Positions 12,330 to 49,507 of a stretch of DNA of 64,000 nucleotides are shown here, in pieces (the stretch's first letter is position 1; each line of letters opens with the position of its first letter). The DNA is from Gemmatimonas sp. (GTDB taxonomy: Bacteria; Gemmatimonadota; Gemmatimonadetes; Gemmatimonadales; Gemmatimonadaceae). The notes beneath the pieces are model-generated. The model was not told where the DNA came from and ran no database searches. It saw only the letters and a list, made by a program, of their open reading frames with translations. The position numbers and the translations under genes are program-made. The DNA lies in contig OZ257156.1 of assembly GCA_965279375.1 (NCBI GenBank), positions 1,152,001 through 1,216,000 on the forward strand, read 5' to 3'.

Positions 12330-15049
12330 GAGGAGAGCGTCTTCTTGAGCGCCGCGAGCGCGGTCAACGCCTGCATCGGCGTCATCTCGTCCGGCTCGAG
12401 CGCGGACACCGCGTCGGCCAGCTGCGCATGCGCCGGATCCACCGGTGCGGCTGCGGGCGCCTCGCCAAAGAAGCCCAACTGCGCCACCGGCCCCGTGGGA
12501 GAGAGCTTCATGCGCGGTCCTTTGCGCGTCGCACTCTTGGGCGCCACAAAGCCTTCCGCGGTTAAACGCGCCGCCATCTGCGCGCCCTCGCCTTCCAACA
12601 GCGCCAGCACTTCTTTCGCACGCGCAATCACTGGCGCGGGCAAGCCGGCCAAGCGCCCAACTTCGATGCCGTACGACCGATCCGCACCACCCGGAATCAG
12701 CGTGTGCAGAAACAGCACCTGATCGCCCACTTCACGCACCGCCACGGTGAAGTTCCGCACGCCGGGCAGCTCGTTCGCCAGCTGCGTGAGCTCATGATAG
12801 TGCGTCGCAAACACCGTCTTGCACCCAATCGCATCGTGCAGATGTTCGCTCACGCTCCACGCAATCGATACACCGTCGTATGTGCTCGTGCCGCGCCCGA
12901 TTTCATCGAGTAACACGAGCGAGCGCTTGGTCGCCGTGTGCAGAATCGCACTCGTCTCGCTCATCTCCACCATGAACGTCGACTGGCCGCGCACGAGATT
13001 GTCGCTCGCGCCCACACGCGTGAACAAGCGATCGGCGATGGGCAGCTTGGCGCGACGCGCCGGCACGTACGAACCCACCTGCGCGATCAACTGAATGAGC
13101 CCGATCTGCCGCAGAATGGTGCTCTTGCCGGCCATGTTGGGACCGGTCAGCACGATGAGCTGCGCATCCGACGTCAGCAGCAAGTCGTTGGGGATGAACT
13201 TCTCGCGCGCCATCATCCGCTCCACCACGGGATGCCGCCCGCCCACGATCTCCATATCGAAGCCGTCGTGCAGCTCCGGACGCGCGTACTGCTCGCGCTC
13301 CGCGACTTCCGCAAACGCGCCCAGCACGTCGATGGTGGCCACGCGCCGCGCCACCGCCTGCCACCGCGCAATCGCCACGCCTGCTTCGCGCCGCAGCGCT
13401 TCAAACAGCTCGCGTTCGCGAATCTCGATGCGCTCCCCCGCCGTCAGCACCTTCTCCTCGTACGACTTGAGCGCCGGCGTCACATAACGCTCGGCACCCG
13501 TGAGCGTTTGCCGACGCTGATAGTCGTCGGGCACGAGATGCTTGTTCGCGTTGGAGATTTCGAGATAGTACCCGAACACGCGATTGAAGCCGACCTTGAG
13601 CGACGTGATACCGGTGCGCGCGCGCTCTTCGTTCTGGATGTGCGCAATCGCATCCTTGCCACCATCACGCAGCGCACGCATCTCGTCGAGCTCTGCATCC
13701 ACGCCGGGCGCGATGGTGTCTTCTTCGCCAATCGCCAGCGGCGGACGCTCCACCAGCATGCGCGTGAGGCGTTCGGCGCAATCGGTGCCGTCGTCCCAAT
13801 CGTCCAGCAGCGCGCCAAGCAATCCGCCAATCGCGTTGCCCTGCGCGGCATGCTCCAGCACCGCACGCGCCGTCTGCGCCACACGCGGTAGCCGCGCCAG
13901 TGAATCACCCAGCGCGCGCAACTCACGCGGCGTCGCACGCGAAGCGGCTGCCTTGCTGGCCAAGCGCTCCACATCGCGCACGCCATCCAGCGCTTCGCGC
14001 AGCGCCGAACGCCCCACGGCATCGCGCACCAGCACCGTCACCGCATTCAGTCGACGCTCGATGGCTTCCCGCTCGAGCAACGGCGCCAACAACCACTGAC
14101 GCAGCAGTCGCTGTCCCATCGGCGTGACGGTGCGATCGAACACCGACAACAGTGTTCCCGCGATCTCGCCACCGCGCAGCGATTCCACCAACTCGAGATT
14201 GCGACGCGTCATCTCATCGAGCGGCATCACGCCGCCCGGGCGTTCCACGATTGGACGCGCGAGATGCGGAAGGCCACCGGGCTGCAACTCGCGCAGATAG
14301 CGGAGCAGTGCACCTGCTGCTCCAGTCGCGGCGCCGTCGCTCTGTCCGAGTCCAAATCCATCCAGGCCGCGCACATCGAACTGACGGGCGAGATCGTCGG
14401 CCGCGAGCTGTGCATCGAACTCCCAGCCGTCGCGCTCGGTCACCATCGCGCCGTCTACCGCTTGAGTCACCATCGCCATCGTCGCTTCATCGGCGCCACG
14501 CACGAGCAGCAGCTCGCGCGGCGCCAAACGCGCCAACAGCGCCGGCGCATCCATCGCCGACACGAGCGCGAGACGCAATTCACCCGTGGATAGATCCGCT
14601 GCCGCAATGCCGATCTGCGTGCGATCGCCGTCACGCGCGGTGTCACGTCCAGTCGCGACGGCACACACGTAGTTGGCACGCGCGCCGTCGAGCATGTCGT
14701 CCGCAAACACGGCGCCCGGCGTGATCGTCTCCACCACTTCGCGCCGCACGATCCCCTTGGCCAGCTTGGGATCTTCCACCTGCTCGCACACAGCCACACG
14801 ATGACCGTGTCCCACGAGACGGCGCAGATACTCCGCCGCCGCCTTCACGGGAATGCCTGCCAGCGGCACCTCGCTCGCGCCGCCGTTGTTGCGCGAGGTG
14901 AGCGTCAAGCCGAGCACACGCGATGCGGTTTCCGCATCGTCGTAGAACATCTCGTAGAAGTCACCCATGCGGAAAAACAGGATCGCATCCTGATGACGCG
15001 CCTTGATCTCCCGGTACTGCTGCATCAACGGTGTCGCAGTTCCACTCAC
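12326..15049 (-). CDS. mutS: DNA mismatch repair protein MutS
   Basis: TPLMQQY, FRMGDFYEMF, TGPNMAGKS, DEIGRGTST and FATHYHEL motifs; C-terminal clamp motif QLGFF at 12467-12481. Confidence 0.98.
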   Translation of the reverse strand: MSGTATPLMQQYREIKARHQDAILFFRMGDFYEMFYDDAETASRVLGLTLTSRNNGGASEVPLAGIPVKAAAEYLRRLVGHGHRVAVCEQVEDPKLAKGIVRREVVETITPGAVFADDMLDGARANYVCAVATGRDTARDGDRTQIGIAAADLSTGELRLALVSAMDAPALLARLAPRELLLVRGADEATMAMVTQAVDGAMVTERDGWEFDAQLAADDLARQFDVRGLDGFGLGQSDGAATGAAGALLRYLRELQPGGLPHLARPIVERPGGVMPLDEMTRRNLELVESLRGGEIAGTLLSVFDRTVTPMGQRLLRQWLLAPLLEREAIERRLNAVTVLVRDAVGRSALREALDGVRDVERLASKAAASRATPRELRALGDSLARLPRVAQTARAVLEHAAQGNAIGGLLGALLDDWDDGTDCAERLTRMLVERPPLAIGEEDTIAPGVDAELDEMRALRDGGKDAIAHIQNEERARTGITSLKVGFNRVFGYYLEISNANKHLVPDDYQRRQTLTGAERYVTPALKSYEEKVLTAGERIEIRERELFEALRREAGVAIARWQAVARRVATIDVLGAFAEVAEREQYARPELHDGFDMEIVGGRHPVVERMMAREKFIPNDLLLTSDAQLIVLTGPNMAGKSTILRQIGLIQLIAQVGSYVPARRAKLPIADRLFTRVGASDNLVRGQSTFMVEMSETSAILHTATKRSLVLLDEIGRGTSTYDGVSIAWSVSEHLHDAIGCKTVFATHYHELTQLANELPGVRNFTVAVREVGDQVLFLHTLIPGGADRSYGIEVGRLAGLPAPVIARAKEVLALLEGEGAQMAARLTAEGFVAPKSATRKGPRMKLSPTGPVAQLGFFGEAPAAAPVDPAHAQLADAVSALEPDEMTPMQALTALAALKKTLSS

Positions 15050-46647: not shown

Positions 46648-46677
46648 TTGACTTATCCACATCCGGAGCGGTAGCTT
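46648..46677 (+). promoter_or_regulatory. dnaA promoter with an overlapping perfect DnaA box
   Basis: TTGACT-N18-TAGCTT; TTATCCACA at 46653-46661. Confidence 0.75.
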
Positions 46678-46742: not shown

Positions 46743-48161
46743 ATGTCGCTCTCGCCCGCCGAACTCTGGGATCGCCTGCGCCAGCGCGCGCGCCAGGTGC
46801 TGCCGGAGCAGACGTACCGCACGTGGCTCGAGCCGACAGAAGCACTGGCAGTGGAGGGCGACACGCTGATGGTGGGCTCTCCGGACCAGTTCTCCGCCGA
46901 CTGGAACGAGTCCAAGCACGCCGACCTGCTCGCCAGCTTCAGCCCGGTCGCACTGGGCCATCCCCTCAAAGTCCGCTTCAAAGTCCACGAGGAACGCGTC
47001 GGTCGCGTCCAGATGGACATGTTCGTCGCGCCTCCGCCAGCGCCAGTTGTCGCGACACCAAAGCAGCAGCAATCGCGTATATCGACGCCACTTAACCCGA
47101 GATACACGTTCGACCAGTTCGTCATCGGTAAGTCCAACGACGTCGCCGCTGCCGCCGCACAGGCCGCCGCCCAGGCACCCGGCAAAGTCTACAACCCGCT
47201 CTTCATCTACGGCGAAACCGGACTCGGCAAAACGCACCTCATGCAAGGCATCGCCCATGAGCTGCTCCGCCGAACCCCAACCCTCCGACTCGCCTACGTC
47301 GGCACCGAGCAGTTCACCAATGAGTTCGTCTCGGCCATCCAGACCGGCCAGATGGGGGACTTCCGACGCCGCTTCCGCGAAATCGACCTGCTCCTGGTCG
47401 ACGACGTCCAGTTCCTGAAGGGGAAGGAATCCACGCAGGAAGAATTCTTCCACACCTTCAACGCCATCTATGAGGCTGGACGGCAGATCGTCCTCACCTC
47501 CGATCGGCCGCCCAAAGAGATCCCGGGACTCGAATCCCGCCTCGTCTCGCGGTTCGAATGGGGCATGGTCGCCAACATCGACGCCCCAGACCTCGAACAC
47601 CGCATCGCCATCCTGAAGAAGAAGGCGAGCCTCGATCACCTCGAGCTCACCATCCCCGACGAAGTCATCGAGTTCATCGCGCAACACGTGAAGTCCTCCG
47701 TGCGCGAACTCGAAGGCTCGATCATCAAGCTGCTGGCCTACGCGTCACTCAAGCACCGCGACATTTCCGTCGACCTCGCCCGCGAAGCGCTCCGCGACAA
47801 ACTCCGCGGCAGCGCCAGCTCCGAATTCCCGGAAATCCCCCCCACCTCCATCACGGTCGCCACCATCCAGCAGGTGGTCTCCCGCGAGTGGGGCGTCACC
47901 CCCGACGGCCTGCGCTCCAAAACCCGCACCAAACAGCTCACAGGGCCCCGCCAGGTCGCGATGTACCTCTGTCGCGAACTCCTCGCCCTGCAGCTCGTCG
48001 AAATCGGCAACGCATTCGGTGGACGCGACCACTCCACGGTCATTCATTCGCTCGATCGCGTCGCCGAAGACATGGCCGGCGAACCCGGTTTTGCCGACCG
48101 CGTACTCAAGGTGCGAGGCATGTTGGAAACCCTGCGGACAACTGGACAACTGGGCACCTGA
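46743..48161 (+). CDS. dnaA: Chromosomal replication initiator DnaA
   Basis: YNPLFIYGETGLGKTHL, LLVDDVQF, QEEFFHTFN, SVRELEG and GGRDHSTV motifs. Confidence 0.99.
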   Translation: MSLSPAELWDRLRQRARQVLPEQTYRTWLEPTEALAVEGDTLMVGSPDQFSADWNESKHADLLASFSPVALGHPLKVRFKVHEERVGRVQMDMFVAPPPAPVVATPKQQQSRISTPLNPRYTFDQFVIGKSNDVAAAAAQAAAQAPGKVYNPLFIYGETGLGKTHLMQGIAHELLRRTPTLRLAYVGTEQFTNEFVSAIQTGQMGDFRRRFREIDLLLVDDVQFLKGKESTQEEFFHTFNAIYEAGRQIVLTSDRPPKEIPGLESRLVSRFEWGMVANIDAPDLEHRIAILKKKASLDHLELTIPDEVIEFIAQHVKSSVRELEGSIIKLLAYASLKHRDISVDLAREALRDKLRGSASSEFPEIPPTSITVATIQQVVSREWGVTPDGLRSKTRTKQLTGPRQVAMYLCRELLALQLVEIGNAFGGRDHSTVIHSLDRVAEDMAGEPGFADRVLKVRGMLETLRTTGQLGT

Positions 48162-48394
48162 GTCCCCACTCCCCCACATCACTCCACAGTCGAGCACCTC
48201 GCTCAAGTGGATCAGTGGTGAGTCCCGCCCGCAGTGAACATCGAATGCACATGATCAGACGTGGCGAAAGTTCTTCGCCCAGCGTAGGTTGCACCGCTTG
48301 TAGACAAGTCCACACGCCCTACTGCTACTACCTGTTTTTTATCTAAGAGTACTTCTAACAGCAGTCACTCCACAGAACGGGCAGAAACACCCGC
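48162..48394. other. Probable oriC unwinding region
   Basis: Several degenerate DnaA boxes; opposed boxes TGTAGACAA/AAGTCCACA (48299-48314), then CGCCC, DnaA-trio-like TACTGCTACTAC (48320-48331) and an AT-rich tract (48333-48360). Confidence 0.8.
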
Positions 48395-49507
48395 ATGCGC
48401 TTCACGATCTCGCGCGAGAAACTCCTCGAAGGACTTCAGGCGGTCACGCCAGCCGTCCCGGCCAAGACCACCCTCCCGGTCCTGTCGAACCTGCTCGTCG
48501 AAACGACGGAGCGGGGCATTCGCCTGTCGGCCACCGACCTCGATATCGCCGTCAGCACGGAAGTTGTGGCCGATGTCGAAACCGCCGGCGCCATCACGAT
48601 CCCCGCCAAGAAGCTCAGCGAGATCGTGCGCGAACTGCCGCCATCACCGGTCAAACTCAGCGCCACCGGCGAACAGCGCATCTCGCTCGAGTGCGGACGC
48701 TCCAAGTTCAAGCTGCTCGGACTGCCGCGTGACGAGTTCCCCACGTTCCCCAGCGTCCGCTTCCAGGACGCGTGGCGCGTGAAGTCGGGTGAGCTGCAAA
48801 AGCTCATTCACCACACCGCGTTCGCCGTCAGCACCGAAGAGTCACGCCCGATCCTGAACGGCGTCCTCTGGGAATTGCGCGACGACAAGATGCGCATGGT
48901 CGCGACCAACGGGCATCGCTTGGCGAAGATGGAGGTGCCGGTAGATGGCAGCACAGCGCCCTCCAGCGACCTCATTGTGCCACCAAAAGCCCTCGAACAG
49001 ATCCGACGCCTGTTCCCGGCCGAAGAAGAGCTGGAAATCGCTCGTGGCGACAACCACCTGGGCTTCCGCTCGCCGTTCACCTCGGTGTTCACCCGCCTCG
49101 TCGAAGGGCCGTATCCCAACTACGAGCAGGTCATCCCGAAGGACAACGATCGCTACTGCCTCGCCGACAAAGCCGCGCTCACCAGCGCGCTCAAGCGCAT
49201 GTCGGTCATCGCGTCCGATCAGACGCACCGCATCAAGATGTCGTTCAACTCCGGCATGCTGAAGTTCAGCGTCACCACGCCGGACCTGGGCGAAGCACAG
49301 GACGAACTCCCGGTGCAGTACACCGGCGATCAGCTGGACATCGGCTTCAATGCCACCTACCTGCTCGAAATCCTGCGCTACATGCCCACCGAGCAGATCC
49401 GCCTCACCTTCAAGGCTCCGGAACGCGCTGCGACCATCGAACCCGAAGGCTGGGACGATGCCAGCAAGTATCTCTGCCTGGTGATGCCGCTCCGCTTGAT
49501 GGACTGA
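48395..49507 (+). CDS. dnaN: DNA polymerase III beta sliding clamp
   Basis: LSATDL, SRPILNGV, VATNGHRL, YPNYEQVIP and LVMPLR motifs. Confidence 0.98.
   Translation: MRFTISREKLLEGLQAVTPAVPAKTTLPVLSNLLVETTERGIRLSATDLDIAVSTEVVADVETAGAITIPAKKLSEIVRELPPSPVKLSATGEQRISLECGRSKFKLLGLPRDEFPTFPSVRFQDAWRVKSGELQKLIHHTAFAVSTEESRPILNGVLWELRDDKMRMVATNGHRLAKMEVPVDGSTAPSSDLIVPPKALEQIRRLFPAEEELEIARGDNHLGFRSPFTSVFTRLVEGPYPNYEQVIPKDNDRYCLADKAALTSALKRMSVIASDQTHRIKMSFNSGMLKFSVTTPDLGEAQDELPVQYTGDQLDIGFNATYLLEILRYMPTEQIRLTFKAPERAATIEPEGWDDASKYLCLVMPLRLMD

Follow-up and report, generated by a model that had tools for sequence, protein, structure and literature searches.

A predicted clamp-binding motif beside domain I of the chromosomal initiator DnaA in Gemmatimonadales

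Introduction

How do the Gemmatimonadales, an order of soil and water bacteria, couple their initiator DnaA to the replication fork? The two known chromosomal links that couple DnaA to DnaN, the sliding clamp, namely Hda and YabA, are both negative regulators. Hda is listed for alpha-, beta- and gamma-proteobacteria and YabA for Firmicutes (PMC3290774), and domain II of DnaA is described as a poorly conserved tether (PMC5295017). An earlier note on a stretch of Gemmatimonas sp. DNA pointed to five residues of DnaA, QMDMF, as a possible clamp-binding motif (CBM), through which DnaA might dock directly on DnaN and be inactivated or sequestered after initiation without an adaptor, a possible built-in Hda function.

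Results

The motif lies beside domain I, in a segment predicted to be disordered

The window, by which we mean the whole stretch of 64,000 nucleotides that was analysed, belongs to a genome assembled in one contig (G000) that is 99.95% complete. It contains dnaA at 46743..48161 (plus strand, as are all features of this section), an ORF for a full-length four-domain initiator of 472 amino acids that matches the Pfam families DnaA_N, Bac_DnaA and Bac_DnaA_C and, in a structure match, has the fold of B. subtilis and A. aeolicus DnaA. Walker A and B, arginine finger, sensor II and the box-binding helix-turn-helix are present, and the gene adjoins dnaN (48395..49507, from ORF and pocket alignment), which lies 3' of it and encodes the beta sliding clamp, the predicted partner. 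A perfect DnaA box, TTATCCACA, is located upstream of dnaA at 46653..46661. The gap between dnaA and dnaN (48162-48394) holds degenerate DnaA boxes only and, near 48320-48350, an AT-rich stretch with short TAC repeats; dnaA is about 39 kb away from the GC-skew minimum of the genome.

Domain I, delimited by model and Pfam, comprises residues 1-81 (46743..46985) and is followed in the alignment by a flank of residues 82-89 (46986..47009) with E83/E84, R85 and R88. Bases 47010..47024 then encode Q90-M91-D92-M93-F94, exactly as had been read before, and sequence, alignment and model together mark these residues as the predicted CBM. A variable Pro/Ala/Gln-rich linker (residues 95-116, 47025..47090), disordered in the model, leads to the AAA+ module of domain III (47091..47807, from the alignment) and to the DnaA-box-binding helix-turn-helix of domain IV (47856..48122, approximately residues 372-460, from model and Pfam). 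K163, R266, R270 and R321 align with K178, R281, R285 (the arginine finger) and R334 of E. coli DnaA, and R270 aligns also with R153 of Hda.

According to an AlphaFold2 model made from 50 sequences that bear the motif, strand 76-81 closes domain I and a short helix (84-87) comes next. Because residues 87-111 have a pLDDT below 50 and no secondary structure, we place the motif outside the fold of domain I. Burial of the motif in domain I was the structural objection that the earlier note had raised against its own proposal; the model instead predicts a position past the fold, in a disordered stretch.

The motif is conserved throughout the Gemmatimonadales sampled

We compiled 55 DnaAs of the order from the 30 best loci of a search of 41 genomes and from part of a search of 151 genomes of the phylum (145 matches, 70 loci fetched), with order assignments taken from the record labels. 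In the analysis as a whole, two loci were dropped, a DnaA_N match without ATPase (L053) and a locus that was not parsed (L279). Q[MI]D[FML]F was found just past domain I in 55/55 genomes, usually followed by V, in the forms QMDFF (22), QMDMF (20), QMDLF (10), QIDLF (2) and QIDMF (1). In 39 aligned rows of the order, Q90, D92 and F94 are invariant, as is R88 upstream (39/39), and R85 is kept in 36/39; Q90 is unchanged in 50/50 aligned motif-bearing rows and is one of three invariant residues N-terminal to domain III. In the 39 rows the top residue reaches a mean frequency of 0.89 over the motif, compared with 0.37 over the remaining linker, 0.65 over domain I and 0.82 over domain III, and among the 5-residue windows starting at residues 1-111 the motif ranks second. 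It is thus conserved to the same degree as the ATPase domain and forms the conserved island in a variable linker that the earlier note had thought worth looking for by alignment. Two of the three findings that this note had named as refuting its proposal, lack of conservation and burial in domain I, were thus looked for and not seen.

Could the motif be a product of chance, or reflect a constraint on DNA or RNA, such as a binding site, or a start codon within the gene at M91 from which a short DnaA would be made? In 4,260 script-called genes (1,602,559 residues), Q[LMI]D[LMF][FW] occurs 3 times and the loose pattern Q[LMIV]x[LMF][FW] 87 times, which corresponds to 6.6 × 10−5 and 1.9 × 10−3 expected occurrences per 35-residue linker, respectively; chance alone would therefore give about 1e-4 to 2e-3 occurrences per linker, even without regard to conservation. 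Synonymous codons differ across the order (CAG/CAA, GAC/GAT and TTC/TTT, with six codons for R88), and position 2 is Ile, encoded by ATA, ATT or ATC, in 3/55 genomes of the order and, encoded by ATC, in 4/11 genomes of a family from another class of the phylum (f10; see below). The position-4 codon of that family, CTC in 11/11, speaks for a nucleotide-level constraint. Because synonymous codons vary and position 2 is sometimes Ile, the constraint acts on the peptide and not on DNA or an internal start; we therefore rejected a short DnaA starting at M91 and a DNA-level element, and we regard chance or nucleotide constraint as exceedingly improbable.

When GTDB was scanned with a DNA pattern that places the motif upstream of domain III, at least 120 stretches matched. 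Among the 80 listed, 73 are in-frame DnaA, 2 are frameshifted Gemmatimonadales copies and 5 are chance matches, and 72 of the 73 in-frame matches listed are labelled Gemmatimonadota, Gemmatimonadales or Gemmatimonas. The pattern asked for a TTC codon and for a motif some 14-34 codons ahead of domain III, so the scan is no proof of absence elsewhere. The exception (L201) is on a 3-kb contig of a genome whose second dnaA is motif-less, and it is therefore probably mis-binned. Genome G185 has two dnaA genes (L247, L249), one of them a Gemmatimonadales-like copy with QMDLF on a 3-kb contig, which is probably due to mis-binning. Clusters of a protein atlas returned nothing beyond generic DnaA_N.

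Related motifs occupy the same place in other lineages

The motif was found in none of 32 DnaAs from other orders of the same class (26 matched genomes) and from two further families (6), or in none of 31 when G126, which is flagged unpublished, is left out. Two pattern matches in motif-less lineages, QIRLRF and QLKMSF, lie inside the last strand of domain I and were excluded from this count. One motif-less family of the same class (f6; L032, L034, L037, L039, L042, L047) has RL[DV]FP[ED] at the equivalent spot past domain I, possibly a degenerate or a different motif.

In f10, Q[MI][DNE]LW is present in 11/11 genomes (QMDLW 5, QIDLW 4, QMELW 1, QMNLW 1), at a variable distance from domain I; a protein of the f10 type is labelled Gemmatimonadota at its source. 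A tree of DnaA domains III-IV (52 rows, midpoint root) requires two changes of the trait, with the clade of the order (100/99) and f10 (100/100) parted by motif-less lineages. The trait was gained twice, or gained once and lost several times.

Searching 1.84 billion representatives with a profile of domain I and the motif, we obtained a DnaA (P0138) with the six-residue form QLDLEY five residues past domain I. Among the best 120 of 1,979 relatives of P0138, which include many near-duplicate rows and five rows named Bacteroidota, 43 show Q[LI]D[LM][DE]Y flanked by acidic residues, and in the remainder of these 120 the motif is degenerate or absent. In 63 aligned rows of this Bacteroidota subgroup, position 1 is Gln in only 35 and position 6 is Tyr in 55; the motif segment of one member (P0152, residues 96-136) is predicted to be disordered (pLDDT < 50). 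A second island, PPQPxSF, often follows the motif in the subgroup (P0138, P0152-P0270; L265). Of 110 matched Bacteroidota loci we fetched 70, of which 69 gave readable DnaAs, with QLDLEY in one and a degenerate form in one; the six-residue motif is a trait of a subgroup within the Bacteroidota.

In a fourth clade (P0127, P0271-P0297), the 27 top-ranked proteins have a linker island of the form Q[LIM][PSAT]LP (18), QD[DSE]LPF (8) or QLEFP (1), and the other 93 listed proteins of the same search have no such island. Compared with QLSLPL of Hda, the first five letters match; because the sixth, hydrophobic residue is mostly missing, we treat this clade as a lead only. The QD[DSE]LPF form resembles the tail of SSB.

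In three lineages, the motif lies approximately 4-9 residues past the last strand of domain I, whereas 16 to 49 residues, depending on the genome, separate it from domain III. The independent evidence amounts to three or four lineages and not to 100 genomes, kin not being independent.

Domain II of DnaA has further islands. Many Bacteroidota DnaAs (L250-L319) have NPF[VIA]IPG (e.g. NPFVIPG) shortly before domain III, and one group among these loci has a conserved PVTI[EQ]LP. Several profile matches (P0002, P0031, P0037, P0052, P0070) carry two or three tandem copies of domain I. DnaA linkers may hold lineage-specific binding motifs worth surveying.

The motif has the hallmarks of a clamp-binding motif, with departures

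Two types of CBM are known, with the consensus Q-phi-x-[LM]-[FL] and Q-phi-x-[LM]-x-[FL]; position 2 is tolerant (L, I, V and A, without Met, in the review set), Asp is preferred at position 3, and QLDLF is the strongest known peptide (PMC11139829). QMDMF is one position away from QADMF of Pol III alpha (PMC11139829); QIDLF fits the consensus exactly, and the order variants QIDLF and QMDLF are close to QLDLF. The six-residue form of the Bacteroidota subgroup resembles QVELEF, likewise of Pol III alpha, and QVEMEF of RecB (PMC13254535). Position 1 is Gln in 55/55 DnaAs of the order and in 11/11 of f10, as in the 35/63 rows of the Bacteroidota subgroup mentioned above. Position 2 is Met in the window and in 52/55 genomes of the order, Ile in 3; Met or Ile at this position is also found in the replicative-polymerase (DnaE) or MutS motifs of f10 and of a Bacteroidota genome (G221), namely QMGLF, QMSLF, QIGLF and QMTLF. 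Position 4 is Met in the window, L/M in 33/55 and Phe in 22/55 genomes of the order, and Leu in 11/11 of f10. At position 5, Phe is present in 55/55 genomes of the order, but f10 has Trp in 11/11, outside the Phe/Leu rule.

The peptide pocket of the cognate clamp is kept. At 22 positions that we take to line the pocket, DnaN of the window is identical to the E. coli clamp at 15, including H175 and M362 (E. coli numbering), and the pocket is intact and near-invariant in all 52 rows aligned. In 10/10 aligned clamps of f10, E. coli positions 346, 360 and 365 are Gly, Val and Lys, where the order has Ala, Leu and Arg; these changes might suit the Trp of the DnaA motif, although they come from one clade whose DnaE and MutS motifs still end in Phe.

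Other clamp clients of the same genomes served for comparison. The C-terminal clamp motif of MutS, QLGFF, to which the earlier note had pointed, lies at 12467..12481 of the window on the minus strand and has Phe at position 4. In a search of 30 genomes (29 rows), MutS motifs end in LF in 25/29 and in FF in 3, all of the latter in the genus of the window, and DnaE motifs end in LF in 25/27 rows. Two further proteins of the window's genome are likely clamp clients, a DinB-like protein with QLGLF (G000:C1:4812112-4813356, plus strand) and a protein of 801 aa that bears an exonuclease-type signature and, close to its C-terminus, QLPLF (G000:C1:5048499-5050904, minus strand).

Next to the LF preference of the established CBMs in these genomes, the DnaA motif stands out as an outlier. 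In the order it ends most often in FF and in f10 in W, and R85 and R88 are conserved upstream, whereas the flanks of CBMs are mostly acidic; E. coli peptides bind the clamp more weakly when Phe stands at position 4 or Trp at position 5, and Tyr does not belong to the position-6 set of the review (PMC11139829). Either the motif is tuned to be weak, which would suit an abundant protein that must spare the polymerase, or its partner is not the clamp. Its binding instead to the helicase, DciA, a protease, another regulator or DnaA itself is what these endings, the fixed Asp and the upstream arginines would suggest, since they depart from local CBMs and E. coli preferences alike, and conservation alone does not name the partner because domain II has other, non-clamp-like islands such as NPFVIPG. 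The succession of Gln, aliphatic, acidic, hydrophobic and aromatic residues, with five- and six-residue spacing in separate lineages, nevertheless matches the range of one clamp pocket. The motif is also unpacked in two single-chain models, although these are of low confidence at this point and a conditional contact is possible. We consider a partner other than the clamp improbable.

Judged from sequence, the motif is probably a CBM by which DnaA docks directly on DnaN. We put the probability of docking at about 0.8, mainly because separate lineages show five- and six-residue forms at the same place. From the earlier proposal, docking on DnaN gains in weight through the CBM-pattern island, its recurrence in other lineages and the intact pocket; inactivation by a built-in Hda does not.

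Neither Hda nor YabA was detected

The earlier note had suggested searching the genome for hda and yabA, and our searches detected neither. No protein of G000 exceeds the cut-off of the Hda model TIGR03420 (194.8 bits; the window's DnaA scores 118.3 bits), a model that is narrow because just 1/14 control genomes passed. YabA (PF06156) was found in 0/6 genomes searched (G000 and five others), and was detected in the controls B. subtilis and L. lactis.

We also searched 60 genomes with the DnaA ATPase family. An Hda-sized paralogue was not seen in motif-less genomes either, several of which are single-contig. We fetched 18 loci, three without a parsed ORF; the strong extra matches fetched belong to one double-/single-AAA+ family with a conserved Trp-containing tail, four weaker matches are insertion-sequence-ATPase-like as read from their translations, and 8 further matches are weak. 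DciA is present in 50/50 genomes searched, motif-bearing and motif-less. No anticorrelation of the motif with Hda or with DciA was seen in these searches, and the motif makes good no evident lack from which motif-less genomes would suffer.

In G000, the only other DnaA-type protein (G000:C1:3511482-3513467, plus strand) has two tandem DnaA-type AAA+ modules and lacks domains I and IV. We rejected it as an Hda stand-in; its N-terminus has no visible clamp motif, its neighbours, as read from their translations, are chemotaxis-like, small-GTPase and TPR genes, and its relatives occur in motif-bearing and motif-less genomes alike. By appearance it is a signalling ATPase derived from DnaA and not Hda. 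Single- and double-module relatives (L102, L103, L107-L119) are found across the phylum, though none was seen in f10; at the C-terminus they have in common a Trp-containing tail that ends in D(R)xxEE[LM]-like residues.

These results bear on the proposal that clamp-docked DnaA acts as its own Hda, offering R270 to ATP-DnaA and so causing hydrolysis (cis-RIDA). The order of motif and AAA+ module is that of Hda, in the alignment R270 falls on R153 of Hda and R285 of E. coli DnaA, and R321 on R334, contact between DnaA molecules by way of R285 and R334 is able to bring about hydrolysis on datA (PMC5742627), and G000 has no Hda over the cut-off. Because motif-less relatives lack Hda just as much, however, the motif does not track the loss of Hda, and because motif-less genomes show the same gap, the absence of Hda is no evidence for a built-in one. 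The arginines are universal in DnaA, so R270 at the position of R153 is not diagnostic. The motif precedes the TF that opens the ATPase by 27 residues, against 6 in Hda, and with 16-49 residues between motif and domain III the spacing follows domain I and not the ATPase; Hda also has a second clamp contact (PMC13691371, PMC7049699). The built-in Hda function of the earlier proposal is thus supported by neither distribution nor spacing, and we think it unlikely. A one-gene RIDA in which DnaA is its own Hda, with the clamp motif gained independently in several lineages, is doubtful; if it were true, Hda could have arisen from such a layout by duplication and loss of domains I and IV.

Discussion

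Tethering of DnaA to clamps after initiation, as a negative feedback, is the best explanation we can offer for the motif, held tentatively and at somewhat less than even odds. The motif stays at a similar distance from domain I but not from domain III, which is why we give first place to tethering with domain I occluded. Once replication has started, clamps would accumulate on the newly made DNA, both at the forks and behind them, and on these clamps DnaA would dock weakly, aided by DNA binding and by the avidity of its oligomer. In the DnaN pocket, one subsite would receive Gln1 and Met2 and the second subsite positions 4-5, in the manner of polymerases, MutS and Hda. Docked DnaA would be kept from oriC, with the clamp set against domain I, the site of its helicase and self contacts, and the effect would lapse on clamp unloading. 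Such an adaptor-free feedback would be of the YabA-tethering kind, tethering to the replisome being one of two published models for YabA (PMC5295017). Both docking and its negative outcome we infer from the features described above, and what we know of the locus would fit a positive as well as a negative outcome.

A positive outcome would resemble that of the plasmid RK2 initiator TrfA: origin-bound DnaA would recruit the clamp or the clamp-loader complex and so speed replisome assembly. TrfA (QLSLF), which must contact the clamp for a replisome to assemble in vitro (PMC8034659, PMC4980987), is the only precedent we found for an initiator with its own CBM; the motif of DnaA adjoins domain I, the recruiting end, and a weak affinity would suit hand-over. 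Motif-less sister lineages nevertheless initiate with the same machinery, DciA occurring with and without the motif, and we found no missing loader for the motif to replace. We therefore also consider a recruiting role unlikely, and return to tethering as the preferred reading.

Clamp motifs, the coupling of DnaA to the clamp and a clamp-binding plasmid initiator are already known, and what appears to be new is the motif in a chromosomal DnaA. A literature search that lacked most subscription papers and supplements gave no report of a chromosomal DnaA with its own CBM, and none is mentioned in the passages of PMC3290774 and PMC12926913 that were available or in Table 1 of PMC11139829. The motif thus appears to be undescribed, as the earlier note had supposed. 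A five-residue handle that is present order-wide and recurs at the same spot elsewhere points to direct docking as a third possible solution for connecting DnaA to the fork. If docking is true, initiation would be tied to the running fork without the adaptors of model bacteria.

Compared with known systems, the motif shares with beta-clamp clients Gln in first place, hydrophobic residues at positions 2 and 4, an aromatic residue at position 5 or 6, Asp at position 3, a disordered setting and a conserved cognate pocket. It differs from them in the frequent Met2, Phe4, Trp5 or Tyr6, in the basic upstream flank of the window's order, and in its carrier, a chromosomal initiator, a kind of protein absent from the clients in Table 1 of PMC11139829. 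Hda/HdaA likewise has a CBM upstream of an AAA+ module of the DnaA type, in which the arginine finger occupies the equivalent position. Hda, however, is a separate protein without domains I and IV, both of which the window's DnaA has, and besides a second clamp contact it has its hexamer at the N-terminus, 6 residues ahead of the ATPase module, whereas the window's DnaA is a full initiator whose motif is internal and tied to domain I. With YabA of Bacillus subtilis it would share what we propose as its outcome, namely that DnaA is tied to DnaN at the replisome and ATP hydrolysis is not needed; YabA is a tetrameric adaptor, whereas the link between DnaA and DnaN would here be direct. Like TrfA of RK2, finally, DnaA is a replication initiator with a CBM of its own in the N-terminal region, but TrfA, a Rep protein of a plasmid, is no AAA+ ATPase governed by ATP/ADP, and through its clamp contact it promotes the assembly of the replisome.
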